From Candidatus Saccharimonadota bacterium (GTDB lineage: Bacteria > Patescibacteriota > Saccharimonadia > Saccharimonadales > Saccharimonadaceae), in NCBI GenBank assembly GCA_015999875.1, contig JAECRG010000001.1, positions 171,330-235,329 on the forward strand: DNA of 64,000 nucleotides, in the 5' to 3' direction. Below are positions 10,733 through 63,146 of the stretch, one piece after another. Under the pieces are notes generated by a model. It saw only the letters and a list, made by a program, of their open reading frames with translations. It searched no databases and was not told where the DNA came from. The first letter of the stretch is position 1. Each line of letters opens with the position of its first letter. Made by a program: the position numbers and the translations under genes.

Positions 10733-11157
10733 ACGCGCTGAATCACGCCCTATCTGGCGCGATTATTGCTGTGCTTGTTCCCGCCCCTATGATTCCGCTC
10801 GTAGCAGTTGCTACTCATTTTGTACTTGATGCCTTTCCACATGCGAAGACACCTGATAATATACGCGACGCACTTAAGCGTCCTTTTGCGTATACATTCT
10901 ATAGTGACATCGCGCTCACCTTCGCCGCCACACTACTCGCGTGGTATCTGTTCCCCGACAAACTATGGCTCATACTTCTCGGTGTGTCGTTTGCAATACT
11001 TCCTGACTTATTGTGGTTCTTCAACGGCAAAGTAGCTTGGCTCAAGCCATATTTCAAGTTTGCGTTGTGGATACAATGGGCAGAAAAGCCATGGGGCTGG
11101 TCGCTAGAGATTCTCTATAGCATGATCTTCGTGGTAGTACTTATTGGTCTGAGCTAG
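10729..11157 (+). CDS. membrane protein, possibly DUF457/YdjM-like metal-dependent hydrolase
   Basis: The GTGA start/stop overlaps the upstream gene. HALSGAII...HFVLDAFPH resembles DUF457 His motifs. Confidence 0.4.
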   Translation: MNALNHALSGAIIAVLVPAPMIPLVAVATHFVLDAFPHAKTPDNIRDALKRPFAYTFYSDIALTFAATLLAWYLFPDKLWLILLGVSFAILPDLLWFFNGKVAWLKPYFKFALWIQWAEKPWGWSLEILYSMIFVVVLIGLS

Positions 11158-11359
11158 ACAAGGATGTCCCTTTTGGACGGGGTGGCACAATAATCCACAG
11201 TATAATATAGGGAAGCAACCCCGGTAAGCCACCAGGCAATAGTAGCAGTACTGCCACGACGCGTATGATTACGGGGTCTATACCAAAATATTCTGCAATG
11301 CCAGCGCAGATACCTGCAATCTTGCGATCTGTCGTGGAGCGATATAGTCTTTTTGTCAT
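11141..11359 (-). CDS. PspC-domain membrane protein
   Basis: MTKRLYRSTTDRKIAGICAGIAEYFGIDPVIIRVV is present. The start is trimmed from 11404 to 11359. Confidence 0.75.
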   Translation of the reverse strand: MTKRLYRSTTDRKIAGICAGIAEYFGIDPVIIRVVAVLLLLPGGLPGLLPYIILWIIVPPRPKGTSLSSSDQ

Positions 11360-11440
11360 ATGTACAGTATACCGCATTAAAACTCTCTGTACGTCCAATG
11401 CCAACCCGTGCGTTCTACGGCTTGTGAGATCTATAGTATA

Positions 11441-11463
11441 AATAAAAACACCGTAGTACGGTG
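11441..11463 (-). terminator. rho-independent terminator after tRNA-Leu(CAG)
   Basis: The minus strand reads CACCGTactACGGTG followed by TTTTTATTTAT. Confidence 0.6.
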
Positions 11464-11472
11464 CAATTATAG

Positions 11473-11559
11473 TGGTACAGATGAGAGGACTTGAACCTCC
11501 ACGCCCCGAAAGGCACTAGCACCTGAAGCTAGCGCGTCTACCAATTCCGCCACATCTGC
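11473..11559 (-). tRNA. tRNA-Leu (anticodon CAG), CCA encoded
   Basis: The reverse complement is GCAGATGTGGCGGAATTGGTAGACGCGCTAGCTTCAGGTGCTAGTGCCTTTCGGGGCGTGGAGGTTCAAGTCCTCTCATCTGTACCA. The anticodon loop is TTCAGGT, the variable arm is long and the T-loop is GGTTCAAGTCC. Confidence 0.95.
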
Positions 11560-11601
11560 TCATACTTACTACTTTACAGCGCAAACGACACTTTTTCAAC
11601 A

Positions 11602-13254
11602 CTAGCTAGGACTTGAGTATCCGGCAAAATCTATGCCGTCATACCCAGTGCGAAGATGGGCAACAATAGTACGCAACTCGACAGGCTGTTTAACTCCGGC
11701 ATTGAGTGTACCGTATGGATCAAAGATAGTGCGTAGATCCGTGTAAAGCTTCGCAACCTCATCGCTAGTGCGCTTCTCGATGAATGGTGACTTAATACGA
11801 CCTTCGGCAGCTTCGCCTACCGTAGAGCCTCCATGCTCATATACGACTTTTACAAATGCATCATAGAACTTAAGAAGTTTCTGTTTGTCGACAGCAGAAC
11901 GAAGTGAGAATTGCGGCCAAAAACTGTATACACCGTCCGTAGCATAGCCGCTATATGGCAGCTTTATACCGGTAGCTTTTTCCAACACAGCAACAGCATC
12001 GCGAAAATCTTCAAACCTTGCATGCGGCAAGTATACACCTCGAAACAGCGAAGGTACGATAGTGGACTTTTCTTCAGAATACACAGCAGCGTAGACAGCG
12101 CCACGCAGGGCAGAAATCTCCTGAATCACCTCAGGCTTAAGAGCCTGCTCGGCAACACCGCCGTATTTATCTGACAACTTGAGTGCTTTTTTGAACTTTC
12201 TCTTGCGGACACGTTCGCTAAAATCACGGAATGAGCAAAGCACGAGACCAGCGATTACAGCTGGCGTGGCGCTCTCGCCATCAACAAGAGAAAAGATATT
12301 GTAGCGCTTGCCATGCGTTCGAGCGAGAGAGATAAGTTCACCGTCAAACACCTCCAGCGCATCAGGCTGCAATGTACGTAGCTCGTCTACTAGATCCACA
12401 AAGTTATTTGCATCAGGTACCGCAATGGCAACAAGCGCTTCTTCATTGTTATAAAACTCTGCTTTTAAGATCATCTCCGAAACAATACCCAGAGTACCCT
12501 GCGCACCAACAAATAGCGGCGTTAGATCAAAAGTACCGTTTTTGTGCTTTACCTTGCGAAGATTCGCGTAACCAGAATTGTCGATTGTGCCAGTATCGAG
12601 CTGACCATCTATGAGTGTCCTGTTATCTTCTATAAGATTGTCTACGCTACGATATATCTCGCCTTCAAGTGTCTGCAGACCCTTCTTTTTACTGAGTTCT
12701 TTCTTACTGAGTCGACTCGTTTGGATTACGTCGCCGTTTGCCAATACAACTTCTAATTCAGTAACGCTTTCGTCGATCGCACCGTTTTGGCCAGAAAGAC
12801 GCCCGCTGGCGTTGTTGGCTACAGCGCCGCCTATCGTACTGTACGCAGATGAATCTGGAAATGAGGGGATATAGCAGCCCTGTAGCTTAAGTGCTGTCTG
12901 CAACGAGCCAAAGTTTGTACCAGGTTGAACTCGTACTAATCGCTGCTTGGTGTCGAATTCAAAGATACTGTCCATGTGGGCGGTAGTGCTAACTAGTATA
13001 CCCTGCGTAATAGCCCCGCCAGTCTGATCTGTACCAGCACCACGTGCCGTGACACTGATAGCATGTCCTTTGTCAGCCAGCTGATGAGTAAAACGAAGCA
13101 CTTTGCGGATATCGTTAGTACTACGCGGATATACTACAATCTCTGGAGTAAGTGACAACATGCTACCATCTGTAGATAGCTGTTTGCGCACAGCCGCATT
13201 TGTAGTCACCTCACCGAGCAAGTGTTCATTTAGGTACTGGGAAATTTTACTCAT
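11602..13254 (-). CDS. FAD-binding oxidoreductase (GlcD / D-lactate dehydrogenase-like)
   Basis: 550 aa. A PCMH-type FAD-binding region (VTARGAGTDQTGGA, GGAVANNASG) is followed by a C-terminal oxidase domain. Confidence 0.8.
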   Translation of the reverse strand: MSKISQYLNEHLLGEVTTNAAVRKQLSTDGSMLSLTPEIVVYPRSTNDIRKVLRFTHQLADKGHAISVTARGAGTDQTGGAITQGILVSTTAHMDSIFEFDTKQRLVRVQPGTNFGSLQTALKLQGCYIPSFPDSSAYSTIGGAVANNASGRLSGQNGAIDESVTELEVVLANGDVIQTSRLSKKELSKKKGLQTLEGEIYRSVDNLIEDNRTLIDGQLDTGTIDNSGYANLRKVKHKNGTFDLTPLFVGAQGTLGIVSEMILKAEFYNNEEALVAIAVPDANNFVDLVDELRTLQPDALEVFDGELISLARTHGKRYNIFSLVDGESATPAVIAGLVLCSFRDFSERVRKRKFKKALKLSDKYGGVAEQALKPEVIQEISALRGAVYAAVYSEEKSTIVPSLFRGVYLPHARFEDFRDAVAVLEKATGIKLPYSGYATDGVYSFWPQFSLRSAVDKQKLLKFYDAFVKVVYEHGGSTVGEAAEGRIKSPFIEKRTSDEVAKLYTDLRTIFDPYGTLNAGVKQPVELRTIVAHLRTGYDGIDFAGYSSPS

Positions 13255-31261: not shown

Positions 31262-31312
31262 GATACTATAACTACAAAAGCATAATCATTTATCAATAGG
31301 AGGTGGGACCCC

Positions 31313-33322
31313 ATGCATAAACCGTACATACTGGCGATTGGCGATATTGTCACAGACGCGTTCATCAAACTCAAAGACGATGAGGCAAAAGTAGAGACCG
31401 ATGAGCAGGGCAACAAGCATCTCGTCTTACCCTTTGGTACAAAACCGCCTTACGACCACGTAGATATAGTACAAGCCGTAGGACCATCACCAAATGCGTC
31501 TGTTGCTTTCTCTCGACTTGGCGCTCATTCAGGTCTCATGGCATATATGGGCGACGATATACCCGGTAAAGATATGCTCGCCTATCTTGGCGAACAAAAT
31601 GTTGATACATCGACCATCTCGGTTGCTGAAGGCATGAAATCTAACTACTGGTACGTACTGCGCTACGGTGCAGAACGAACCATTTTGGTCAAAAACGAAC
31701 AGTACGACTATAAATGGCAGGAACCAGCCCAAGTACCTGATTGGATTTATCTCAGCGCACTCGATGGTGCTTCATGGGAACTCCACATGGAGCTCCTCGG
31801 CTACCTACGCAAGCATCCCGACACGAAGCTAGTGTTTCAGCCCGGGACATTCCACTTCAAGTGGGGTGCCGAAAAACTTGCAGAAATCTACGCACGTTCC
31901 TACATGGTCTGTATGAACAAAGAAGAAGCGGCCGACGTAACAGGTCGTGACCTCAGCAATATCGAGGATTTGTTTGATGGCCTACACAACCTTGGATCAG
32001 AAGTAGTCGTAATCACCGACGGTCCACAAGGATCATATGCAAGTGATGGTAAAAAGATTATCTCAATCCCAAATTACCCCGACCCTAAGCCACCTACAGA
32101 CCGCACCGGTGCTGGTGATGCATTCGCCTCCACAATCACAACGGCGCTTGCACTCGGCGAGTCACTCGAGACAGCACTCACTTGGGCGCCTATCAATAGT
32201 ATGAATGTCTGCCAACACTTAGGCGCGCAGGCTGGGCTACTTGATAAAGAAGCAATTCTCACTCTTCTCGGCAACGCACCGGACGACTACAAGCCAACTG
32301 TTATCGCAGGGGCACACGATGCGCCCCTGGAAGATATTGCTCGCTCACTTGTCGAAAATCCCAAAGGCATCTTCGCAGCTGACGAAAGTGGAGGTAGTAT
32401 CAATAAGCGTTTCATCCAATACGGCATCGAGGATAGCGAAGAAGTCCGTCGACAATATCGCCAACTCTTCTTTACAGCTCCCGAAGTCGAGCATTATTTA
32501 AGTGGAGTGATCTTATTTGATGAAACTGCCCGCCAAGCGGCAGATAACAAACAACCGTTTCCGGAGCTACTATCCGAGCGCGGTATCATACCAGGCGTGA
32601 AGGTCGACAAAGGCATTGTTGCACTACCAGGCTTCGACGGTGAAGGGGTTACAAGTGGCCTAGATGGCCTACCTGAACGACTCGCCGAATATCACGCCCT
32701 GGGTCTTCGTTTTGCCAAGTGGCGTGCCGCGTTTACAGTCACCGATGCACTACCAAGTGACGCGGCGATTGCCGCAAACGTACATGCACTTGCACGCTAC
32801 GCACTTGACTGCCAAAATGCCGGCATCGTACCTATCGTAGAGCCGGAAATTGTACACGAGGGTGATTTCAGCATTGATCGCGCCCAGGAAGTCACTGCGC
32901 GCATCCTTGATGCGCTTTTCGAGGAACTTGCGCTTCTTGGAGTCAATCGAAAAGCAATTATCCTAAAAACGAGCATGGTACTTGCAGGCAGCAAACAAGA
33001 ACAATCATCCGCCGAGGCAGTCGCCAAGGCTACTGTTTCTACGCTAGTGCACCATGTTCCTCATGATATCGCAGGTATTGTCTTCTTGTCTGGAGGCCAA
33101 ACACCAGAACAAGCTACTGCGAACTTACAGGCTATTACAAATCTCGGTGAGCAAGCATGGCCGATCACGTTTAGCTTCTCTCGAGCTCTTCAAGAACCAG
33201 TGCTAGAAGTATGGGGCGGCCAACCAGAGAATACAGAACATGCTCAAGCTACTTTCACCGGTCTAGCCAAAGCAAACAGTGACGCGACAGTTCAACAAGA
33301 TACAATCAAAACAATCTTTTAG
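31313..33322 (+). CDS. fusion protein: PfkB-family sugar kinase (N-terminal, about 320 aa) plus class I fructose-bisphosphate aldolase (C-terminal, about 340 aa)
   Basis: AGGAGGTGG lies 7 nt upstream. The kinase part has ILAIGDIVTD and DRTGAGDAFAS. The aldolase part has ADESGGSINKRF, GVKVDKG, PIVEPEI, ILKTSMV (Schiff-base Lys context) and VFLSGGQ. Confidence 0.85.
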   Translation: MHKPYILAIGDIVTDAFIKLKDDEAKVETDEQGNKHLVLPFGTKPPYDHVDIVQAVGPSPNASVAFSRLGAHSGLMAYMGDDIPGKDMLAYLGEQNVDTSTISVAEGMKSNYWYVLRYGAERTILVKNEQYDYKWQEPAQVPDWIYLSALDGASWELHMELLGYLRKHPDTKLVFQPGTFHFKWGAEKLAEIYARSYMVCMNKEEAADVTGRDLSNIEDLFDGLHNLGSEVVVITDGPQGSYASDGKKIISIPNYPDPKPPTDRTGAGDAFASTITTALALGESLETALTWAPINSMNVCQHLGAQAGLLDKEAILTLLGNAPDDYKPTVIAGAHDAPLEDIARSLVENPKGIFAADESGGSINKRFIQYGIEDSEEVRRQYRQLFFTAPEVEHYLSGVILFDETARQAADNKQPFPELLSERGIIPGVKVDKGIVALPGFDGEGVTSGLDGLPERLAEYHALGLRFAKWRAAFTVTDALPSDAAIAANVHALARYALDCQNAGIVPIVEPEIVHEGDFSIDRAQEVTARILDALFEELALLGVNRKAIILKTSMVLAGSKQEQSSAEAVAKATVSTLVHHVPHDIAGIVFLSGGQTPEQATANLQAITNLGEQAWPITFSFSRALQEPVLEVWGGQPENTEHAQATFTGLAKANSDATVQQDTIKTIF

Positions 33323-33942
33323 ATCAAGCACGCAACAGTATCATTTAAGCTCTTACCCGGCACAAACACTGTCAACTCATTATGAGAGGAAGTGACTTCA
33401 ATAAGATTCACTCCTCGCCCAGCAAGTAGCTGTAGTACATATGCACATACGCCCGGTATAGGTAAATGGCCGGGGCGCAGCTTCACTGTTACTCCCACTA
33501 GGCCTCGTGACGTGACAGTGCCATGCAGCGAAGCCTCGAGTTCGTCTATCACTTCGCTGCGGCCTATGAGTGCCGTGTGCCAAATTCCTCGGGTATACAC
33601 CATATATTCGTGCTGTTCGTGAAGTTTTCTTGCTGCCCGAAAAAAAGCATCTGTGTTTATGTCTGCCTGCGGAATAGTGAGGATACCTAGACCTGATTGA
33701 ACTGATATTTCTCCTAAATACGAAGAAAAGTCGATACCATCACTATTTGTCATCCGACGCGCTTGGCGATTGAGTGCCAGTGTAATCGCCTCCACCGACA
33801 CACGCTCACCGCTCGCTTCCTCTATCTCGGGCCTAATCTGTCTTGCCAGCGACGAATAGTTAATAATTCCCTGCCTCATGTGCAATGCGTGCGTAGGGTG
33901 ATGTTCGATCCAGCTGCGTATTCTATCAGATATAGTTATCAT
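33319..33942 (-). CDS. ACT-domain-like protein (207 aa)
   Basis: The C-terminal VTVKLRPGHLPIPGVCAYVLQLLAGRGVNLIEVTSSHNELTVFV resembles an ACT fold. The call is low confidence. Confidence 0.4.
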   Translation of the reverse strand: MITISDRIRSWIEHHPTHALHMRQGIINYSSLARQIRPEIEEASGERVSVEAITLALNRQARRMTNSDGIDFSSYLGEISVQSGLGILTIPQADINTDAFFRAARKLHEQHEYMVYTRGIWHTALIGRSEVIDELEASLHGTVTSRGLVGVTVKLRPGHLPIPGVCAYVLQLLAGRGVNLIEVTSSHNELTVFVPGKSLNDTVACLI

Positions 33943-33995
33943 ACTTGATTAATTCTAATCACTTTATTTAATTATTGATCATTATATTAAATATT

Positions 33996-34025
33996 TTGCT
34001 ATACGTCAATCTCGCAAACTATACT
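33996..34025 (+). promoter_or_regulatory. promoter TTGCTA-N18-TATACT, 6 nt from ATG 34032
   Basis: Read directly from the sequence; no SD is present. Confidence 0.5.
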
Positions 34026-34031
34026 GCGAAC

Positions 34032-34643
34032 ATGACACGAGAAATCATTACCACCAGACTAGCAACGGTCGACGACATACCTGCAATTCGTTTCATGTAT
34101 GACGATCTAAAACAATACCAAGATTATCCAGCATTTCGATCCAAATCGTTCCATCGAGCAGTCGGACATATCATCGAAAGCGCAAAAGACTCGGAGCGAA
34201 TTATCGTTGCTTCCACGACGGACGGACAGCCAGTTGGCATGGCTCATGCTGCACGGCCATTCTCCATACGAGGCAATCAAGCAAACATGGCATACGAACT
34301 CCACCATTTGTACGTAGACGAGAGTGCGACCTACACAGCCCCAATCAACCTAGTAGATCACATAGCCCGCGATATACAGCGCACAGCTGGTTCGCGTAAG
34401 GCGCTCGAAGGCAGCTCACTATCTATAAGTAACGGCGACACCAATTGCTTTGACACACTTCTTGCACAGTATCGCTACAACGGTGCGATGAGCTCTATTC
34501 GCTACAACAGCGACGAGTTACGTGACATGGCTCTACGCTCCATCACTAGACAATACCGGCCAGAAGACGTTATTGAACCGGCATTTGCTGATCCGGACAG
34601 CGTAGTAGTACAGTTTCCATCGCTGACTTCTCAGCAGGTGTGA
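34032..34643 (+). CDS. GNAT-family N-acetyltransferase (putative)
   Basis: ITTRLATVDDIPAIRFMY... has a GNAT-like N-terminus. The start is trimmed from 33975. The last 74 nt overlap the convergent nuclease gene. Confidence 0.5.
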   Translation: MTREIITTRLATVDDIPAIRFMYDDLKQYQDYPAFRSKSFHRAVGHIIESAKDSERIIVASTTDGQPVGMAHAARPFSIRGNQANMAYELHHLYVDESATYTAPINLVDHIARDIQRTAGSRKALEGSSLSISNGDTNCFDTLLAQYRYNGAMSSIRYNSDELRDMALRSITRQYRPEDVIEPAFADPDSVVVQFPSLTSQQV

Positions 34644-35283
34644 CCCATAGCGAGTAGACTTGCTTCACGGCGATCTGCCTCGCCACATACTGGCACCGAA
34701 AGGCTTTGTTGGATGGCAGCCATGACGCAGCGTCACTATCACTTTTCTGTTGATTTGCCTTACCGTCGGCAGCAATCAGATTCAAGGGATCGTTTGCAAG
34801 CGCATAGCGCCGCTCGACGCTGAGCTGCTGTGCACCAGTCTGCCAGGCGTTACTCAGCGCGACAACATGATCTATCTGTACATCGGCACTCGTACCTGCT
34901 CCTCGCGTGAAAGCGACCTCTCTCCCTGTGTATGGGTCGCGTAAAATACCGCTCACCACTTTACACACCTCGTCAACCTGAACAGCATCAAGATCACGAC
35001 GCAATATAATATTACGCATGTCACATTCGCTCACTTTTGCCCAGCCGTTGCTAAATTGCGTGCGTGCATAGCCCGTTTTGGGAGACTTGCCTTTTACCGG
35101 TAAACTCTCGAGCACACTAGTGACAGATGAGCTGTTCTGCTTAGTAGCGATAGGTTGATTTATTACCGGAGGCTTCACTGCATCAAATTCACGCCTCCCC
35201 ATATCAAACGCAACAGCAGACAGGCTCACGATTGCTATGATCAAAAGCACGACAAGTCGACGGATTTTGTAGTTTGGCTGCAT
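34570..35283 (-). CDS. membrane-anchored or secreted HNH-type nuclease (DUF1524 family)
   Basis: An N-terminal TM (RLVVLLIIAIVSLSAVAF) is followed by QIDHVVALSNAW and NLIAADGKANQQKSD. Confidence 0.75.
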   Translation of the reverse strand: MQPNYKIRRLVVLLIIAIVSLSAVAFDMGRREFDAVKPPVINQPIATKQNSSSVTSVLESLPVKGKSPKTGYARTQFSNGWAKVSECDMRNIILRRDLDAVQVDEVCKVVSGILRDPYTGREVAFTRGAGTSADVQIDHVVALSNAWQTGAQQLSVERRYALANDPLNLIAADGKANQQKSDSDAASWLPSNKAFRCQYVARQIAVKQVYSLWVTPAEKSAMETVLLRCPDQQMPVQ

Positions 35284-37866: not shown

Positions 37867-38838
37867 CTAAATGCTTTCGATATATTGCTCTATTGACGGG
37901 GAATTGCCTGTCAATGAAATTGCCGACACCACCATAGGCACATCAACTATCTTTTTGTTATGTGCGTAGAGTTTAGCAGCATAGCGCATCTGATTAAGCT
38001 TTTTTTGCGTCACAGCAACTAACCCACCGCCCTGATTGGGCTGTCGACGGTATTTTACCTCTGTGAAATATAGTGTCCCTGCTTTGTATGACACAATATC
38101 AATTTCACAATACCTCGTCCTCCAGTTACGCTCGGTGATTTCGTGGCCGTGCCGCACGAGATATTTTGCAGCTTCATCCTCTGCGCGGTCACCTACTTTT
38201 TTGGTGGTTTCATGCTCTATAATATCTTCTACCTCGCGATGCAGTACTGTCTGATCCGAGGTATTTACATCAAAACTCTTGTACTTTGCGAGTGGCGCAA
38301 AACTCAATCTATGGAGTGGAGTCACCCCTAATCTCTCAATAGCCTCTCGGTGCGCCGCGGTGCCATAACCGACATGACCACTAAACTTATAGCCTGGGTA
38401 TACATCATCTTGCGCCGCCATGTAGTTATCCCTGGCAACCTTCGCAATGACTGATGCCGCAGACACGCTTGGTACAAGTAAATCAGCTTTTTTCATGGTT
38501 GTCACATACCTACCCTTTGATGTATCGGCTAGAAAATTTATTGTACCGTCAATAATAATCTCGTGATACGATGCAGCAACTTGCTCAACAGCGCGACGCG
38601 TAGCAAGTCTCAAGCCCTCAGAGAGCCCTTTAGAATCTATCTCACTTGCACTTACCCATCCTAGCCCGTATCCAGCCGCTTTTTGTCGTATTTCGACATC
38701 TAACGCATCGCGTCGCTTCTTTGTGAGCTTCTTACTGTCAGTTAGACCTTCTATCCTCTCACCACCCAGTACCACTGCGCCAATCACAAGAGGTCCTGCC
38801 CATGGACCACGCCCTACTTCGTCTATACCAAGAATCAT
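37867..38838 (-). CDS. rnhB: ribonuclease HII fused to a YraN (UPF0102) endonuclease-like C-terminal domain
   Basis: The start is trimmed from 39021 (which overlaps rplS) to MILGIDEVGRGPWAGPLV at 38838. The C-terminal roughly 110 aa (GDRAEDEAAKYL...YCEIDIV...FTEVKYR) is YraN-like. Confidence 0.85.
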   Translation of the reverse strand: MILGIDEVGRGPWAGPLVIGAVVLGGERIEGLTDSKKLTKKRRDALDVEIRQKAAGYGLGWVSASEIDSKGLSEGLRLATRRAVEQVAASYHEIIIDGTINFLADTSKGRYVTTMKKADLLVPSVSAASVIAKVARDNYMAAQDDVYPGYKFSGHVGYGTAAHREAIERLGVTPLHRLSFAPLAKYKSFDVNTSDQTVLHREVEDIIEHETTKKVGDRAEDEAAKYLVRHGHEITERNWRTRYCEIDIVSYKAGTLYFTEVKYRRQPNQGGGLVAVTQKKLNQMRYAAKLYAHNKKIVDVPMVVSAISLTGNSPSIEQYIESI

Positions 38839-38905
38839 ATATCTATTGTATAGCAAAAACACCGCTCGAGATGATGCGGTGTTTGTTGCGCAAGAAGTTG
38901 GGCTG

Positions 38906-39337
38906 TTATGCTTTCTCTTCTGTAGATTCTGACTTTGGCTCTTCAGCTTTTGGAGCTTCCGGAAGCGTATTGATGCCTTCACGGTCAAATTTGACAGCCT
39001 TGAGGCGGGCGCTCTTACCACTACGATCGCGGAGGAAGCTGAGGTAGTTACGGCGCACCTTAGAGCGACGAGTAACTTCTACTTTCTCTACAAGGGGGTT
39101 GTGAAGCATAAAGCTCTTCTCAACACCTACGCCGCTCGCAATTTTACGTACAGTGATACGGCTCGTATGTGATTCTTTGTTGTCGGTACGGATAACAACG
39201 CCTTCAAAAATCTGAACACGCTCTTTGTTACCTTCTTTGATCTTCTGGTGTACACGTACTGTGTCACCACTGCGAACATCGACAACAGCATGTTTCTTCT
39301 GTTCGTCGTTCACCTTCTTGATTAGTGCAAAACTCAT
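38906..39337 (-). CDS. rplS: 50S ribosomal protein L19 (with about 25-aa acidic C-terminal tail)
   Basis: Motifs seen: GDTVRVHQKIKEGNKERVQIFEGVVI and RRNYLSFLRDR. Confidence 0.95.
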   Translation of the reverse strand: MSFALIKKVNDEQKKHAVVDVRSGDTVRVHQKIKEGNKERVQIFEGVVIRTDNKESHTSRITVRKIASGVGVEKSFMLHNPLVEKVEVTRRSKVRRNYLSFLRDRSGKSARLKAVKFDREGINTLPEAPKAEEPKSESTEEKA

Positions 39338-57065: not shown

Positions 57066-57674
57066 TTAGCCTTGTCCTGCACGCTTCTTACTGACATGGC
57101 TATCGTCAGCATCGTGCATAAAATCTGCATACTTTGCATCAAGTCGGGCAATCACCTGCTCAACTAGTCTATCAGGGTCAGTGTCATAGATAATGTCTTT
57201 TGCACCAGGAGCTTCAATGTTGTCGAGAAGTGTTTTAGTGTAGTCTGCCAATCCACCACTGCCGAGTAGTACGCCACAGACCTTGCGACTTTCGAGAGCT
57301 GTCGATAGCTCATGGAGACTACCCATACGCCCACCCACCGTGATGATCGCATCGCTACTTCGCACCAAGTGCACATCACGCCCGACATACTCCATACCCG
57401 TGAAATTGATATAATCAAATTCCTTTGTTGGCAATCGGTATGTAGCGACATGCTCCCTAAAAGAGCTCGCTGGAGAGAAGCCTATTGATATGCCACGCTT
57501 TCCCTCTACGCTCACTGCACCCATTGCCGCGTAATGAGGCAAGCCTACAGTCGCGCCCGTTGTCAATGTCTTACCTCTTTTTGAAATTGATTTACCAAGT
57601 TCGTACGCAAGTTGATGTGATGCTTGAACCGTCTCACCACTTGCTGCACCCGACACACATATCTGATATCTCAT
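57066..57674 (-). CDS. LOG / TIGR00725-like Rossmann protein (putative nucleotide N-glycosidase family)
   Basis: [19 protein letters not shown] and [10 protein letters not shown] (fitting the GGxG[TS]xxE LOG motif) are present. Confidence 0.6.
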
Positions 57675-58129
57675 ATTTTACGCTCCTTGTTTACCTGTAT
57701 ATACTTTGTAATTTTCTGTAATAATTCCGGATGTGCTGCCCAGTCCTTGTAGCGACTTACGATCTGATCAGCAAGTGCAGCCTGGAGATGCTCCAGGCTC
57801 CTGTCTTCAAATCTCCGCGACTCTTCGTTATCGGTAACTACGTCGTCATGATGGAATGACACCACCTCCCCACCCACTACAAGTCCTGCGTACCGAGTGG
57901 ACTCTCCAAGTACATCTTCGTGTACGCGAAGAGCGTGATAGAGTTCTCGGGCAGTTGCATCACCCTCGAGACCCATCTCACGAATAATAGTGTGTGCGAT
58001 ATGCAATATATCTCCGACAAGTTTAGCGTCAATAGCCTGAGTTCCTGTCGCTTTTTCAAGATCATCAAACGCGATCGACAAAAGTTTGTCTGCGGGTCTG
58101 CCGAGCAATGTCATGAGCGCTCTTGACAT
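57671..58129 (-). CDS. hypothetical protein (152 aa)
   Basis: It has a 4-nt overlap with the downstream LOG-like gene and a 1-nt overlap with the upstream kinase gene. I recognised no motif. Confidence 0.55.
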   Translation of the reverse strand: MSRALMTLLGRPADKLLSIAFDDLEKATGTQAIDAKLVGDILHIAHTIIREMGLEGDATARELYHALRVHEDVLGESTRYAGLVVGGEVVSFHHDDVVTDNEESRRFEDRSLEHLQAALADQIVSRYKDWAAHPELLQKITKYIQVNKERKI

Positions 58130-59097
58130 TAGTAAGGCTTCTCCTCCAGCGGCATGTCATGAAGTTCGGTGTTCTTGTGCAATATGCCTTCTTTTGCGCC
58201 AAATTTTGTCACTACTGACGTAGAGTTGGCACTAGCAAAAACAATCGCCTCTCGTAGACTCTTGCCTAATATCCATTGGCTCAAGAAGCCACTTGCGAAT
58301 GCGTCACCAGCGCCTGTACGATCTACTACTGGAACATCTTCATACATGCCTGCGCTCACAATCGTCTTACCATCACTTGCAACAACGCCCCTTGGGCCAT
58401 CGCTTACTATTGCGACAGGTACATAATGCAACGCATGGCGAACAAGCTCTTCAAGAGTTTCTCCGTCAACGAGCATTTGCATCTCTTCTTTATTCACGCA
58501 CAACACATCGATACTACTTAAAAGAGCCTTGAGTTTTTGAGGATCAGCAAGCTCGGGGCCAGCGGGGTTTAGCATCACTTTTGCGCCTGCCGACTCCGCC
58601 TTATCGACAATCGCACGTAGCAGCTCGATGCCACCTAAAGCAAGTGACGTAGGGTACACCCAATCAACGTCGTTTATCGCATCGAGATTCAGATCTATAT
58701 TATCTGCGCCAGTTGAGACACCTCGATTATTAAGAATAGTTCGCTCGCCGTCAGTCGCAATCAAGATGTTTGAGTAACCTGCACGATACTTCTCCCGTCG
58801 TACTACATGCGAAGTGTCGACACCTTCCGCGTCAAGATCGTGTAGTACTGTTTCCGATGCGGGATCGTGACCTAAAGTCCACATATAACTACTGTGGATT
58901 CCTTGACGTGCAAAGGTTACTGCGACATTACTTGCGTTGCCTCCAGTCGCAAATACAATATCCTCTACTTCCATCTTCACTCCAAGGGGCAGGTGGGTGT
59001 AGGCGACCTTGCCCTCCATCTGCGGACTAAACTCGTCGCTTTTTAAGAAAACGTCCTGTGTCGCTTTGCCTATTGCTAGTATTCTCGGTGTGCTCAT
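58129..59097 (-). CDS. PfkB-family sugar/sugar-phosphate kinase
   Basis: ILAIGKATQDVF, GGNASNVA and DRTGAGDAFASGF are present. It is paralogous to the N-terminal half of 31313..33322. AAGGA SD lies upstream. Confidence 0.85.
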   Translation of the reverse strand: MSTPRILAIGKATQDVFLKSDEFSPQMEGKVAYTHLPLGVKMEVEDIVFATGGNASNVAVTFARQGIHSSYMWTLGHDPASETVLHDLDAEGVDTSHVVRREKYRAGYSNILIATDGERTILNNRGVSTGADNIDLNLDAINDVDWVYPTSLALGGIELLRAIVDKAESAGAKVMLNPAGPELADPQKLKALLSSIDVLCVNKEEMQMLVDGETLEELVRHALHYVPVAIVSDGPRGVVASDGKTIVSAGMYEDVPVVDRTGAGDAFASGFLSQWILGKSLREAIVFASANSTSVVTKFGAKEGILHKNTELHDMPLEEKPY

Positions 59098-59268
59098 GCT
59101 AATTTCCTTTTTATTTTACCGCCCATATCTGACATGTAGTATATCATACCGCTTATGGAGTGTGCATCTGAGCGAAAAAGCCCGACGCTGCGCGACAAAT
59201 CTACCACTCGAAAATAGAATCGCTAAGCACACTAGCGTCGCTTGGTAAAATAAGTCGAAGCGTCGTAT

Positions 59269-60180
59269 CTAAACGATAGCTTTTCCAGCGCTACCAAACG
59301 CCTGAATTTTTTCTTCCACTACTGCCTGCACCGCTCCATACACTTCAGGCATAAGTTTTACTACAGCATACTCATCAGGATGCTCTGCCAGCACTTTTTC
59401 AAGTGTCTTTCTAAATACGTAGCGCATATCACTATTGATATTGATCTTACTTACACCAATTTTTGCTGCATCTTCGAAGAAATGAGATGGAGTACCACTA
59501 CCTCCATGCAAGCTAATACCACAATCGATTGAACCGCGAATCCTCTCAAGCAGCTCGAGATCGAGCTCTTTCGGCACAGGATACTTACCGTGTAGATTGC
59601 CGATGGCTGCCGCAAACGTATCAATACCCGTGGCTTCCACGAATGACTTTGCACCCTCTGGCGTACTGAATGTCTTCTTGATTTCATCGTAATCGATATT
59701 TTCAGTATGAACATTGCTGCTACCACCAAAATAATGCGGTTCACTTTCGACGAGAGCCCCAGTAAACTTAGCATAGTTTACTACTTCGAGTGTCTTTGAG
59801 ATGATTTCTTCTTCGGTAGCAGCATGATTTGCCTGCGAGATGTCGATATGAATAAACTCATATCCTGCATCTATCGCACGCTTGCAGTCATCGACAGACG
59901 GACTATGATCAAGGTTGAGATATACCTCAACACCATATTCCTTTTTATAGTTATCAACCATATCACGAATGTTTTCAAGACCCATGGCTTTGACCTCGCC
60001 ATCACTCACTTCGATAAGTACAGGTGACCGCAGCTTCTGAGCTGCGCCCACAATAGCGATGAGGGTCTCTTGGTTATCTATATTAAACGCACCGACGGCA
60101 AAGTGCTGCTGCTTAGTACGTTGGTACAAATGTCGAGCTCGTGTAGTATTGTCTCGGATTTCGCTAATTGTCAGTCCCAT
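59269..60180 (-). CDS. fba: class II fructose/ketose-bisphosphate aldolase
   Basis: Motifs seen: FNIDN, NLDHS, GNLHG and LHGGSG. Confidence 0.85.
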   Translation of the reverse strand: MGLTISEIRDNTTRARHLYQRTKQQHFAVGAFNIDNQETLIAIVGAAQKLRSPVLIEVSDGEVKAMGLENIRDMVDNYKKEYGVEVYLNLDHSPSVDDCKRAIDAGYEFIHIDISQANHAATEEEIISKTLEVVNYAKFTGALVESEPHYFGGSSNVHTENIDYDEIKKTFSTPEGAKSFVEATGIDTFAAAIGNLHGKYPVPKELDLELLERIRGSIDCGISLHGGSGTPSHFFEDAAKIGVSKININSDMRYVFRKTLEKVLAEHPDEYAVVKLMPEVYGAVQAVVEEKIQAFGSAGKAIV

Positions 60181-60184
60181 TATG

Positions 60185-61183
60185 TTAACCCTCTCTGTGA
60201 TATTGCGCGGTAGTGTTGATAAATTCTTGAATGACGGGCATCATCTTTTCCCCGGTAAGACCAAAATAATCCAATAGTTCGTTTGGCGCACCAGACTCCC
60301 CAAAGCGATCGTACATACCAATGCGCTTTAGGGGTGTTGGCAGTTGCTCGCTCAGCAATTCGGCCACAGCGCTACCAAACCCTGCAGCAACCTGCGCCTC
60401 TTCAGCCGTGACTACACGACCCGTCTTTCGTGCACTTTTGAGCAGAGTTGCTTCATCAAGCGGTTTTATAGTTGGCACATGAACTACCTCCGCAGAGATA
60501 CCATGTTCTTCAAGCAGCTTTGCAGCCTTCAGTAGCTGATAAGACATCGTGCCAGTACCGAAGAGTGAAATATCATGGCCTTCACGCAGTACATACGCCT
60601 TGCCAATTTCAAAAGGTGATTCATCGGTACTAAATATTGGGGTCTTTTCTCGCGCAAGACGCAAGTATGTCGGACTACCATTTTCGGCAATAAGCTGTGT
60701 AGCTTTTTCTGCCTCCACGGCATCACCAGGTATCACGACCACCATACGGGGCAACACTCGCATCAGTGCGATATCTTCAAGCATCTGATGCGTGGCTCCA
60801 TCAGGACCAACACTCACCCCTGCGTGAGAGCCTACAATCTTAACAGGCTGCTCATTGAGCGTAGCGGTGGTGCGAATCTGCTCCCAGTTGCGGCCGGGAC
60901 TAAATGCTGCATAACTCGATGTGAATGGAATTTTGCCTGCTCGAGCAAGGCCGCTTGCAACCGTTACAAGATTTTGCTCGGCTACGCCAATTTCTACAAA
61001 ACGTTCTGGAAAGGCTTCTTTAAAATGATGCATCTGTGTACTTTCGGTCAAATCAGCACACAGTGCTACGATACTTTCGTTTGCCTCACCTGCTTTTTTC
61101 AGACCACGGCCGAAACCAGCTCGTGTAGGCTCTTGGGCTACATCGTCGGAAAATATATCGTCTCTCAGTGGATAATGTGTCAT
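60185..61183 (-). CDS. transketolase, C-terminal (pyrimidine-binding) subunit
   Basis: FVEIGVAEQN is present. This 332-aa half follows the N-terminal-half gene. Confidence 0.9.
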   Translation of the reverse strand: MTHYPLRDDIFSDDVAQEPTRAGFGRGLKKAGEANESIVALCADLTESTQMHHFKEAFPERFVEIGVAEQNLVTVASGLARAGKIPFTSSYAAFSPGRNWEQIRTTATLNEQPVKIVGSHAGVSVGPDGATHQMLEDIALMRVLPRMVVVIPGDAVEAEKATQLIAENGSPTYLRLAREKTPIFSTDESPFEIGKAYVLREGHDISLFGTGTMSYQLLKAAKLLEEHGISAEVVHVPTIKPLDEATLLKSARKTGRVVTAEEAQVAAGFGSAVAELLSEQLPTPLKRIGMYDRFGESGAPNELLDYFGLTGEKMMPVIQEFINTTAQYHREG

Positions 61184-61185
61184 CT

Positions 61186-62043
61186 TTATTCTCCTGCCTT
61201 AATCTTGCCATCAAGCGTGCGTAGTTTCTTGAGTGCATCCTTGGCCTGTTCGTGGTTTGGCGGTGCGCCGTGCCATTTGTAGTCATATTCCATAAAATCA
61301 ACTCCCTTACCCGGGATAGTGTGCGCAATAATAACACTTGGCTTATTAGTGATAGCGCGCGCCATGCTCGCTGCATCACAGATGCTCTCGATATTGTGAC
61401 CATCAATCTCTTGGACATGCCAGCCGAAACTTTCCCACTTACCACGTAGGTCTTCGAGTGGCATCACATCTTCCGTACTACCATCGATTTGGATGTTATT
61501 GCGGTCTATAAAGCCAATAAGCTGACTTAGCTTATATTTACCGGCAAACATCGCAGCTTCCCAGATATTGCCTTCATTAAGTTCGCCATCGCCCATCACC
61601 GTATATACAAATCGATGAGGTTGTTTGTCCATATACTGTAGTGCATATGCAACTCCTGATGCCTGGCTCAAACCACTACCCAAAGGCCCGCTAGTGTTTT
61701 CAAGACCTGGTAATTTTGTGCGCTCTGGGTGCCCCTGCAAGCGGCTACCGAGCTTTCGCAGGGTCGTAAGTTCTGGCCTATCAAAAAAACCTGCCTCAGC
61801 CATAGCTGCGTATTGAACTGGTACTGTGTGGCCATTGCTAAGGAAGAAGTAGTCACGCGCGTCCCAATCAGGATTTTTTGCATCAAAATTCATAATTTCG
61901 AAATACAGCGCAGCGAAAATATCGGCAAGGCCCAGCGGACCAGCACTGTGCCCACTCCCGGCAGCTTCAAGCATTGTGATAATATCTTTACGAATTGTGT
62001 TTGCTTTTTCGTCGAGCTGCGTCAACGTATACTGCTGCTTCAC
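61186..62043 (-). CDS. transketolase, N-terminal (TPP-binding) subunit
   Basis: GHSAGPLGLADI and GDGELNEGNIWEA are present. Confidence 0.9.
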   Translation of the reverse strand: MKQQYTLTQLDEKANTIRKDIITMLEAAGSGHSAGPLGLADIFAALYFEIMNFDAKNPDWDARDYFFLSNGHTVPVQYAAMAEAGFFDRPELTTLRKLGSRLQGHPERTKLPGLENTSGPLGSGLSQASGVAYALQYMDKQPHRFVYTVMGDGELNEGNIWEAAMFAGKYKLSQLIGFIDRNNIQIDGSTEDVMPLEDLRGKWESFGWHVQEIDGHNIESICDAASMARAITNKPSVIIAHTIPGKGVDFMEYDYKWHGAPPNHEQAKDALKKLRTLDGKIKAGE

Positions 62044-62690
62044 TAGAGCACTCCTTGTTTATTGATTTCGTCGACGAGTTGCGTATATGTCACCTCTGCA
62101 TTTACGGCCTTCTGAATCGCACTACCTACGTTTAGAACACTCACACCGCCTTGTGTGAGTGTATAGGCATTGTCCACGTTTACGCCGCCGTCCCAGCCTA
62201 TTTCCGCCTCTGGGTTGATTTGCTTAATGAGGCGTACTTTCTCAAGCTGCATCAGGTTCGCCGTACCCCCCTGGTGTCCAAGGTCTCCAGTAAACACCAT
62301 CACATGATCTGCTTGGCGAATCAGATTAGCGACAGACTCTGGCACAGTAGGACGCAGAAGTGCGATGCCGGATTTGATATTGTACTGCTTCAAGGTAGCC
62401 ATGACAGATGGCAATTGCTCGGGATCCGCCTCGGCATGAAAAATCACCAGGCTTGGTTTGAGCTGCACAAGTGTTTGCAGGTGCTCAACTGGCCGAGCAA
62501 CCATTGCATGAATATCTATTTCCCAACCTTCTGGCCACCAAAGTTCATTTTCCGGCACGAGAAATACAGGTGCAAATTCTCCATCACTAAGATCAATATG
62601 TACCCTTTGAGCAAAAGGCTGGAGTATATCTACCTGCTGCTTATATTGCTCTGCATTTTCTGCCGTCAAAGTCGGCGCAATTAAACTCAT
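62043..62690 (-). CDS. rpe: ribulose-phosphate 3-epimerase family protein
   Basis: HIDLSDGEFAP, DIHAMV, IFHAE and WDGGVN are present. The sequence is somewhat divergent. Confidence 0.75.
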   Translation of the reverse strand: MSLIAPTLTAENAEQYKQQVDILQPFAQRVHIDLSDGEFAPVFLVPENELWWPEGWEIDIHAMVARPVEHLQTLVQLKPSLVIFHAEADPEQLPSVMATLKQYNIKSGIALLRPTVPESVANLIRQADHVMVFTGDLGHQGGTANLMQLEKVRLIKQINPEAEIGWDGGVNVDNAYTLTQGGVSVLNVGSAIQKAVNAEVTYTQLVDEINKQGVL

Positions 62691-62693
62691 GCT

Positions 62694-63146
62694 CTAGACC
62701 TCATCAATCTGCGCGTTACGTCGCTTATACCTTGGTGCATCTGCAAATGGCGTACTAAGCCATGTGTCGATAATCGCCTTCCATTCAACTTCGTCTTTCT
62801 CAAGTATACGAGATGGCAAACATAGCACATTGCTATTATTGTCGTTGCGAGTCATCTTTGCTTCATACTCGTCCCAAATTACGCTCGCTCGTATACCTCG
62901 AAATCGGTTTGCCGCCATCGCCATACCCTGGCCGCCGCCACAGAGCAAGATAGCACGCGGATCATCCCTATCATCTTCCCCGAGAACTTTTAATGCAGCA
63001 AGCTGCGCGAACTGCGGAAAGTCATCTTCCGGATCGAGCGACCTATCGCCGACATCTTCTACGTCATAATCGCGCTTAGCAAGATATGCAAATACTTGTT
63101 CTTTCATGTGAAAGCCATTGTGGTCAGAGCCCAGGAAAATCTTCAT
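62694..63146 (-). CDS. rpiB: ribose-5-phosphate isomerase B
   Basis: MKIFLGSDHNGF, LLCGGGQGMAMAANR and NVLCLPSR are present. Confidence 0.9.
   Translation of the reverse strand: MKIFLGSDHNGFHMKEQVFAYLAKRDYDVEDVGDRSLDPEDDFPQFAQLAALKVLGEDDRDDPRAILLCGGGQGMAMAANRFRGIRASVIWDEYEAKMTRNDNNSNVLCLPSRILEKDEVEWKAIIDTWLSTPFADAPRYKRRNAQIDEV

Follow-up and report, generated by a model that had tools for sequence, protein, structure and literature searches.

Two questions are raised by one open reading frame (ORF) in a 64-kb stretch of a contig from a Candidatus Saccharimonadota bacterium, a tiny symbiont (Saccharibacteria/TM7): whether a kinase of the PfkB family and a class I fructose-bisphosphate aldolase are really encoded there as a single protein of 669 residues, and which reaction the kinase half would provide. 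The whole stretch that was analysed is called the window, and the coordinates given below are window positions unless a contig is named. Our results showed that the fusion is real, conserved within one clade of the Saccharibacteria and uncharacterised. With a probability slightly above one half (about 0.55), the kinase half can be read as an ATP-dependent ketose-phosphate 1-kinase that is coupled to the cleavage of its own bisphosphate product.

The kinase-aldolase fusion is genuine and conserved

The ORF started with ATG, contained no internal stop codon and was preceded by the Shine-Dalgarno sequence given in Table 1, in agreement with the sequence-only reading of this DNA, which had described one unbroken 669-aa frame with a strong ribosome-binding site. 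The motifs listed in that reading, ILAIGDIV, DRTGAGDAFAS, ADESGGSINKRF, VKVDKG, VEPEI, ILKTSMV and VFLSGGQ, were all present in the translation. Residues 60-308 matched PF00294 (PfkB) with 110 bits against a cutoff of 25.8 (E 1.9e-31), and residues 339-661 matched PF00274 (Glycolytic; E 3.5e-111). The aldolase half also passed the class I aldolase equivalog NF033379 of NCBIfam (422.8 bits against a cutoff of 250), and these matches confirmed the claimed combination of a PfkB kinase with a class I aldolase. The two domains were tied together in frame by a linker of 11-12 residues (PTVIAGAHDAPL), which connected the natural C-terminus of the kinase with the natural N-terminus of the aldolase. 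In the alignment, the unfused kinases ended about 4-6 residues past APDDY, and the standalone aldolase P0121 began with MEDIAKKLV.

A large protein search gave about 30 clusters (P0001-P0030) of 660-685 aa, which contained both Pfam domains with 52-99% identity, and all of the clusters that bear names were labelled Candidatus Saccharibacteria. The fusion was found in five GTDB species representatives (L009-L013) and in a JGI contig (L023), with the ORF unbroken in six of six, and these loci had in common ClpC, NusA, a small membrane protein, the fusion and PepN. In the unfused genomes, the kinase gene belonged to a pentose-phosphate operon and the aldolase gene lay beside nusA; since the two genes were not adjacent, a missed stop codon between neighbouring genes cannot explain the fused ORF. 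A stop or frameshift hidden at the junction (nt 32291-32326), for which the sequence-only reading had left room, was excluded, to the extent that sequence comparison allows, by six further assemblies and the roughly 30 clusters. That two neighbouring genes were merged by an assembly or sequencing error is barely credible, given that the same unbroken ORF and short linker recurred in seven independent assemblies and throughout these clusters, and that the unfused genes occupied separate loci.

The databases name the fusion only "fructose-bisphosphate aldolase class I", and a fusion of a PfkB kinase with a class I aldolase of PF00274 was not described in the literature searched, which agreed with the earlier expectation that the architecture had not been characterised. 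A promoter scan upstream of the fusion gene found no consensus sigma-70 site, and the counts were not above the shuffled expectation.

Active sites of the two halves

Alignments to 1j4e, 1fba and 3mmt showed that the equivalents of rabbit D33, K41, R42, K107, K146, R148, E187, K229, S271 and R303 were all present in the aldolase half, and the motifs AADESGGSINKR, KVDKG, FAKWR, VEPEI, LKTSM, LSGGQ and FSRALQ were all found. The Schiff-base residue, equivalent to rabbit K229, is Lys552 (nt 32966-32968). Retention of the catalytic residues and of the 6-phosphate-binding K41, R42, K107 and R303 fits a bisphosphate substrate, and, judged from these residues, the active site is of the bisphosphate type and the aldolase half falls fully within the class I fructose-1,6-bisphosphate (FBP) aldolases. 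The catalytic and phosphate-binding residues are shared with the eukaryote-type bacterial class I FBP aldolases (3MMT; rabbit aldolase A, 1ADO), and the match to the Bartonella henselae enzyme 3MMT had an E-value of 2e-85 and about 50% identity over the aligned region, as counted from the alignment. The window aldolase differs from these enzymes by its N-terminal kinase domain, by the motif ADESGGS in place of ADESTG(S/T), and by the lack of the C-terminal tyrosine of the animal enzymes. No equivalent of Tyr363 was found in the protein, which ends in ...QQDTIKTIF, and the alignments stopped before this tail; Tyr363 is not known to be universal among bacterial class I aldolases. In five other fused proteins (P0021, P0023, P0025, P0026 and P0027), Glu34 was changed to Gln and Lys41/Arg42 to TM, AM, KQ or AL with the kinase motifs intact, changes that may reflect an altered specificity for the distal phosphate.

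The kinase half belongs to the PfkB/ribokinase-like superfamily (PF00294). Its AlphaFold2 (AF2) model had a predicted local distance difference test score (pLDDT) of 94.7 and a predicted template modelling score (pTM) of 0.92, and the predicted fold was a three-layer alpha/beta/alpha core with a beta-sheet lid. The top Foldseek matches (1RKD, 6ILR, 7AG6 and 2C4E) were ribokinase-like, with template modelling (TM) scores of 0.72-0.78 and a probability of 1.00; these nearest neighbours were ribokinases, pseudouridine kinase, the MJ0406 nucleoside kinase and the sulfofructose kinase YihV, at 15-20% identity. The NxxE motif was found as N202-K-E-E205 (nt 31916-31927), and the DRTGAGD segment at residues 263-269 (nt 32099-32119), with Asp269 as the catalytic residue. 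Neither N202-K-E-E205 nor G266-A-G-D269 varied among 28 close homologues that carry the fusion or among the unfused orthologues, and the alignment gave D11, D15, K44, G57, N61, R122 and R264 as further residues invariant in the family. Among the fused homologues of at least 65% identity, 28 of 28 kept all of the kinase motifs.

Since the synonymous sites were saturated, selection was expressed as the proportions of non-synonymous (pN) and synonymous (pS) differences and not as a dN/dS ratio. The pN values were 0.08-0.17 for the kinase half versus 0.13-0.20 for the aldolase half, at a pS of 0.75-0.89; both halves are under purifying selection, with the stronger constraint on the kinase half. 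The retained catalytic residues and the purifying selection lent support to the earlier view that both halves look active.

The substrate of the kinase half

Alignment to E. coli ribokinase (1gqt) showed that G41-G42-K43 of ribokinase, including the ribose-contacting motif-I Lys43, is replaced by V56-G57-P58 in the kinase half. Asn14 is replaced by V13, and no conserved acidic residue was seen at the position of ribokinase E143 in the sequence alignment. Pro58 is invariant. The invariant lid-loop Lys44 is located 13 residues before a conserved Gly, a spacing close to that of Lys27 in E. coli Pfk-2 (12 residues), where the trans-acting Lys27 takes over from the motif-I Lys and forms a bridge between the 1- and 6-phosphates (PMC6429617). 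Asp15 of the kinase corresponds in the alignment to Asp14 of Pfk-2, and the conserved R122 and R264 are near the site. This active-site pattern hints at a resemblance to Pfk-2 and is unlike that of ribokinase. E. coli Pfk-2 (PfkB; 3N1C/3UQD) catalyses the 1-phosphorylation of fructose-6-phosphate (F6P), the reaction proposed for the fused kinase (EC 2.7.1.11), and has in common with it the ribokinase-like fold, NxxE, GxGD, the loss of the motif-I Lys and the lid-loop Lys at a similar spacing. Pfk-2 differs in having no aldolase fusion; only the ATP-binding half aligns, the fused kinase falls outside the TIGR03168 subfamily, and no equivalents of the 6-phosphate ligands Arg29 and Arg90 were established in it by sequence alignment.

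The window holds two kinase/aldolase pairs, with two PfkB kinases and two aldolases in all: the fused kinase with its class I aldolase, and a second PfkB kinase of 322 aa (PfkB-322) with a class II aldolase (58129-60180, minus strand). Standalone kinases more distantly orthologous to the fused one, from other Saccharibacteria and from Paceibacterota (L014-L020), were 42-47% identical to it and only about 26% identical to PfkB-322. At the loci whose flanks were examined, they divergently adjoined a class II aldolase gene near transketolase, Rpe and GAPDH genes, and no other PfkB gene was present within 10 kb. These gene orders indicate that the association of kinase and aldolase is older than the fusion.

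Known fusions of PfkB kinases with aldolases offer an analogy. In the curated NCBIfam families NF047869 (5-dehydro-2-deoxygluconokinase/DKGP aldolase, IolC/IolJ) and NF041633 (KDG kinase/KHG-KDPG aldolase), a PfkB kinase is likewise joined to the aldolase that cleaves its product. Because these curated fusions join consecutive steps, the fusion in the window would by analogy argue for a kinase that makes a ketose-1,6(7)-bisphosphate. Their kinase subfamilies and aldolase folds are different (the class II FBA-like IolJ and KDPG aldolase), and neither model matched the fusion protein at E<=0.01; weak matches to PfkB-322 were seen. A second parallel is E. coli YihV (7AG6), one of the top fold matches (TM 0.73, 20% identity), which phosphorylates C1 of a fructose with an anionic C6 group and whose product is cleaved by the class I aldolase YihT (pathway in PMC8873060). 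That system differs in its sulfonate substrate, in its two separate proteins, and in that YihT comes from another class I aldolase family.

Saccharibacteria have been reported without PFK, that is, phosphofructokinase (PMC8386444, PMC6031116), as have the Candidate Phyla Radiation (CPR) bacteria generally (PMC7304191), and transaldolase was absent from all analysed Saccharibacteria genomes but one (PMC6031116). Among the ORFs of at least 150 aa in the window, none encoded pfkA, transaldolase or fructose-1,6-bisphosphatase. Rpi, Rpe and Tkt cannot turn F6P into trioses if both PFK and transaldolase are lacking; once PFK and aldolase are present, the conversion is possible. A pair of PFK and aldolase can stand in for transaldolase via sedoheptulose-1,7-bisphosphate (PMC7029132). 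The gene would encode a bifunctional enzyme that serves upper glycolysis and pentose catabolism. In the mechanism that we propose, the N-terminal PfkB-fold domain would use ATP to phosphorylate a ketose phosphate at C1, most likely F6P and possibly sedoheptulose-7-phosphate (S7P) too, and the C-terminal aldolase would cleave the resulting 1,6(7)-bisphosphate via the Schiff base on Lys552 into dihydroxyacetone phosphate and glyceraldehyde-3-phosphate (or erythrose-4-phosphate). Both steps together would supply the PFK step annotated as lacking and lead from F6P through FBP to trioses. The substrate, the consecutiveness of the two activities and a kinetic advantage of the fusion are what we infer from these data.

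A similar argument has been made for Nanosynbacter lyticus TM7x, which gains ATP from glucose and in which a "ribokinase" of the aldolase operon, TM7x_02415, was proposed in 2025 to be a PfkB-type PFK (PMC12815258). The phylum, the superfamily, the operon family and the reasoning, namely that a "ribokinase" linked to an aldolase fills the PFK gap, are the same. TM7x_02415 is a separate gene predicted from operon position and qPCR only (PMC12815258), and its partner is a class II aldolase, whereas the link in the window is a covalent fusion with a class I aldolase. Gene order makes PfkB-322, rather than the fused kinase, the probable orthologue of TM7x_02415, because a 322-aa PfkB gene directly follows the aldolase gene in all of the unfused loci.

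Several observations weigh against phosphorylation of a ketose phosphate by the fused kinase. No NCBIfam equivalog was passed by the kinase half and none came near its cutoff; the models for Pfk-2, 1-phosphofructokinase (1-PFK) and tagatose-6-phosphate kinase failed clearly (TIGR03168, 41 versus 216.4 bits; NF007632, 22.2 versus 353; TIGR03828, 37.4 versus 292), and Pfk-2 was not among the top 50 Foldseek matches in the PDB. The mapping onto Pfk-2 was built on residue spacing and aligned sequences rather than on superposed structures. PfkB-322 has the same pattern, with a G-x-K lid lysine and no motif-I Lys, so that the pattern cannot tell which of the two paralogues is the PFK; it directly adjoins the class II aldolase gene and is probably the putative PFK of PMC12815258. 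Linkage to pentose-phosphate genes would equally suit a ribose or nucleoside kinase, and translation of the unfused form of the kinase is coupled to that of a LOG-like protein, which is nucleotide-related. Finally, sister lineages have retained the fusion after decay of the kinase, which means that the N-terminal domain can be kept for non-catalytic reasons. Assignment of the substrate by curated models was rejected, as no equivalog was near its cutoff, and so was assignment by fold, as Foldseek against the PDB returned generic ribokinase-like neighbours at the identities given above. The earlier suggestion of a channelled module that could supply the PFK step was upheld in part, as a genuine fusion whose kinase substrate and channelling are conjectural. 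It is favoured by a host lineage repeatedly reported without a canonical PFK and by the association, in different CPR phyla, of this kinase family with genes for aldolase and transketolase; no equivalog was passed, and the fold match was generic.

The strongest competitor, which we consider rather unlikely, is a kinase that acts on a non-phosphorylated pentose or nucleoside and feeds ribose-5-phosphate to RpiB, Rpe and Tkt, with the fusion uniting members of one pathway and not consecutive steps. This reading agrees with the database names of the unfused orthologues ("ribokinase", "sugar/nucleoside kinase"), with the top hits in NCBIfam and Foldseek (ribokinases, pseudouridine kinase, the MJ0406 nucleoside kinase) and with the place of the ancestral gene in the RpiB/Rpe/Tkt operon, where it is coupled translationally to the LOG-like SLOG protein. 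The ribokinase (EC 2.7.1.15) models nevertheless failed (TIGR02152, 69.7 versus 299.65 bits; NF008353, 56.5 versus 341) and aligned on residues 190-319 only, the C-terminal ATP-binding half, and the residues of the ribose site are replaced as described above. After the kinase had left the operon, the LOG-like gene remained with the N-terminal domain and not with the kinase; the Paceibacterota kinase stands beside an aldolase gene with no LOG-like gene nearby; and the known PfkB-aldolase fusions link consecutive steps. PfkB-322 is also the more ribokinase-like of the two paralogues: it too passed no NCBIfam equivalog, and its best matches were ribokinase (110 bits, over the full length) and ribose-1-phosphate kinase (105 bits). 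Should the fused kinase prove to act on ribose or a nucleoside, the fusion would be no more than a curiosity of pathway-level gene fusion.

An improbable variant is a route of the ketohexokinase type, in which a free ketose is converted to a ketose-1-phosphate such as fructose-1-phosphate and cleaved in the manner of aldolase B, or one that passes through tagatose-6-phosphate and tagatose-1,6-bisphosphate. Ketohexokinase, tagatose kinase and tagatose-6-phosphate kinase are PfkB-fold enzymes, weak NCBIfam matches to TagKinase and 1-PFK were seen, and class I aldolases can cleave fructose-1-phosphate. The loss of K41/R42 in P0021, P0023 and P0025-P0027 hints at a different distal group in some members. 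In the window aldolase, on the other hand, the 6-phosphate site is complete, and its score lies above the cutoff of the FBP aldolase equivalog. The LacD tagatose-bisphosphate class I aldolases belong to a family other than PF00274, which counts against the tagatose route, and the genomic context consists of pentose-phosphate and glycolysis genes with no cluster for fructose or galactose utilisation.

Origin and decay of the fused kinase

The closest kinase-only relatives of the fused kinase were 66-71% identical to it and about 500 aa long, with an N-terminal domain of about 170 aa without a Pfam match followed by the kinase. They are encoded in an operon with the order GAPDH, RpiB, Rpe, split transketolase, class II aldolase, 322-aa PfkB, 500-aa kinase, LDcluster4 and UvrB. 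The window carries the same operon at 63146-55072 on the minus strand (Table 1), and transketolase was split into two genes in all of the related loci. The class II aldolase of the window scored below every NCBIfam cutoff for fructose- or tagatose-bisphosphate aldolases, the nearest being TIGR00167 (208.9 versus 215.6 bits).

Table 1. Positions of the fusion, its parts and the pentose-phosphate operon genes in the window
Feature	Position	Strand	Basis
669-aa fusion ORF, stop codon included	31313..33322	+	ORF listing and sequence
Shine-Dalgarno AGGAGG, 9 nt 5' of the fusion ATG	31298..31303	+	Read from sequence
PfkB/ribokinase-fold kinase domain, residues 1-326	31313..32290	+	Pfam, AF2, Foldseek, conservation
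Linker, residues 327-338	32291..32326	+	Alignment with unfused kinases and standalone aldolase P0121
Class I (Schiff-base) fructose-bisphosphate aldolase domain, residues 339-669	32327..33322	+	PF00274, NF033379, alignments
RpiB	62694-63146	-	Pfam
Ribulose-phosphate 3-epimerase (Rpe)	62043-62690	-	Pfam
Split transketolase (N-terminal half 61186-62043, C-terminal half 60185-61183)	60185..62043	-	Pfam
Class II ketose-bisphosphate aldolase, 303 aa	59269..60180	-	PF01116, E 9.2e-68
Second PfkB kinase PfkB-322, 322 aa, 34% identical to the fused kinase	58129..59097	-	PF00294, E 1.1e-45
152-aa ORF, orphaned N-terminal domain of the ~500-aa kinase	57671..58129	-	tblastn with the N-terminal domains of P0034, P0054 and P0031
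LDcluster4/SLOG (LOG-like) protein	57066..57674	-	PF18306, E 1.3e-25

The slot of the 500-aa kinase gene is occupied in the window by a 152-aa ORF that is homologous to the N-terminal domain alone (33-37% identity to those of P0034, P0054 and P0031, E 1e-14 to 1e-19 by tblastn); the N-terminal domains of the unfused proteins are just 36-48% identical among themselves. This ORF is not debris, because standalone versions formed 25 conserved clusters of 144-153 aa and held the same slot, between PfkB-322 and LDcluster4, in L024 (GW2011_GWC2_48_9, the contig that also bears the fusion L009) and in the more distant relative L026. Its AF2 model had a pLDDT of 90.5 and was helical with one hairpin. 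It matched nothing in Pfam or NCBIfam, and the model resembled no structure in the PDB (best E 3.2). The start of LDcluster4 overlaps the stop of the 152-aa ORF by 4 nt; as the ORF is translationally coupled to LDcluster4 and not to the kinase, its function may belong with the LOG-like protein. A tblastn search found no second copy of the fused-kinase family in the window. In this clade, the operon lacks the kinase moiety, which occurs solely in the fusion with the aldolase, as its N-terminal half. In L008, another Saccharibacteria contig, a standalone class I aldolase with 62% identity was encoded at the same NusA-flanked locus, which makes the aldolase the resident of this locus and the kinase the newcomer.

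Clustering of the kinase family at 50% identity gave 216 clusters at E<=1e-30, and the fusion made up one of the 216, the cluster with the window protein. That the fusion arose in one clean event was considered and rejected as unproven. In the neighbour-joining trees, standalone aldolases were placed inside both fused clades, with P0121 and P0124 inside the fused aldolase clade, and in the aldolase tree the groups containing fused proteins only had 0% bootstrap support. In the neighbour-joining tree of the kinases, the unfused operon kinases P0031, P0033 and P0035 stood beside the fused P0017, P0020 and P0022 with 96% bootstrap support; P0033 (L021/L022, with operon genes of 489-490 aa) grouped with fused kinases such as P0020 (L023). 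In these trees the fused state is not monophyletic, which suggests that fusions were gained or lost repeatedly, or that lateral replacement took place.

Decay of the kinase was seen in sister lineages. In Saccharibacteria proteins of about 595 aa (P0145-P0237, including P0196 at 7001-8776 of L007), a PfkB-derived domain is joined to an intact class I aldolase at a different locus, running from rpmA to xseA. Their N-terminal ~265 residues are homologous to the fused kinase (BLASTP 3e-9), Pfam finds no PfkB domain there, a deletion has removed the DRTGAGD segment and NxxE has gone too, and they are predicted to be pseudokinase-aldolases. The deepest fusions of intact length, P0029 and P0030 (L013/L006), keep GAGD and have lost K44, R122, D15 and NxxE; with a pN on this branch of 0.39 for the kinase half versus 0.23 for the aldolase half, the kinase seems to have decayed here a second time and independently. 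Retention of the domain without catalysis in at least two lineages would favour a non-catalytic role in the window protein as well, as a module for oligomerisation of the aldolase or for its regulation by sensing of ATP or a sugar phosphate. Such a role is very improbable for the window protein, since its catalytic and family-invariant residues are intact, as in 28 of 28 close homologues, its kinase half has the lower pN of the two, and it is the sole copy of the kinase family within the 64 kb.

Two ORFs without a Pfam match follow directly 3' of the fusion gene, one of 207 aa (33319-33942, minus strand) and one of 222 aa (33975-34643, plus strand); the former is convergent with the fusion gene, overlaps it by 4 nt and is 69% identical to its counterpart in L009. 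Between the fusion and pepN, a protein with a GmrSD_C-type nuclease domain and a hydrophobic N-terminal segment is encoded (34570-35283, minus strand), at the same place as in L023. A 384-aa protein (37867-39021, minus strand) combines RNase HII (PF01351) with UPF0102/YraN (PF02021), and the same pairing was seen in L006 and L023, which makes it a further fusion protein in this lineage. In the Paceibacterota contig L015, a gene for a FAD-linked oxidase resembling D-lactate dehydrogenase (11098-12822, plus strand) follows the standalone kinase gene; the window also codes for a protein with this pair of Pfam domains (11602-13254, minus strand), at a distance of 18 kb from the fusion.

For over a decade, genome-based reconstructions of the metabolism of Saccharibacteria and other CPR bacteria have found PFK and usually also transaldolase missing and have invoked a pentose-phosphate "workaround", which does not balance without transaldolase. 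A conserved CPR PfkB kinase covalently joined to an FBP aldolase is strong comparative evidence for the site of the PFK activity. As a tentative and bolder proposal, which we regard as doubtful, the kinase family may be the long-missing CPR phosphofructokinase, a dual F6P/S7P 1-kinase that together with aldolase replaces PFK and transaldolase through a sedoheptulose-1,7-bisphosphate shunt, with PfkB-322/class II aldolase and fused kinase/class I aldolase dividing the hexose and heptose branches. If this is true, the cluster of GAPDH, Rpi, Rpe, Tkt, aldolase and kinase would constitute a complete pathway from pentoses and hexoses to trioses, and the fusion would serve as a natural "Rosetta stone" when PFK is assigned in a family that occurs fused (as in the window), with an N-terminal domain before the kinase (most Saccharibacteria), or standalone by a class II aldolase gene (Paceibacterota). 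The ATP-dependent conversion of F6P (or S7P) to trioses is directly assayable with this single, easily expressed protein. The locus also shows how a reduced genome remodels its central metabolism: a kinase domain was cut from a two-domain protein, the orphaned domain survives as a conserved ORF of its own, and in sister lineages the kinase has decayed repeatedly to a pseudokinase.

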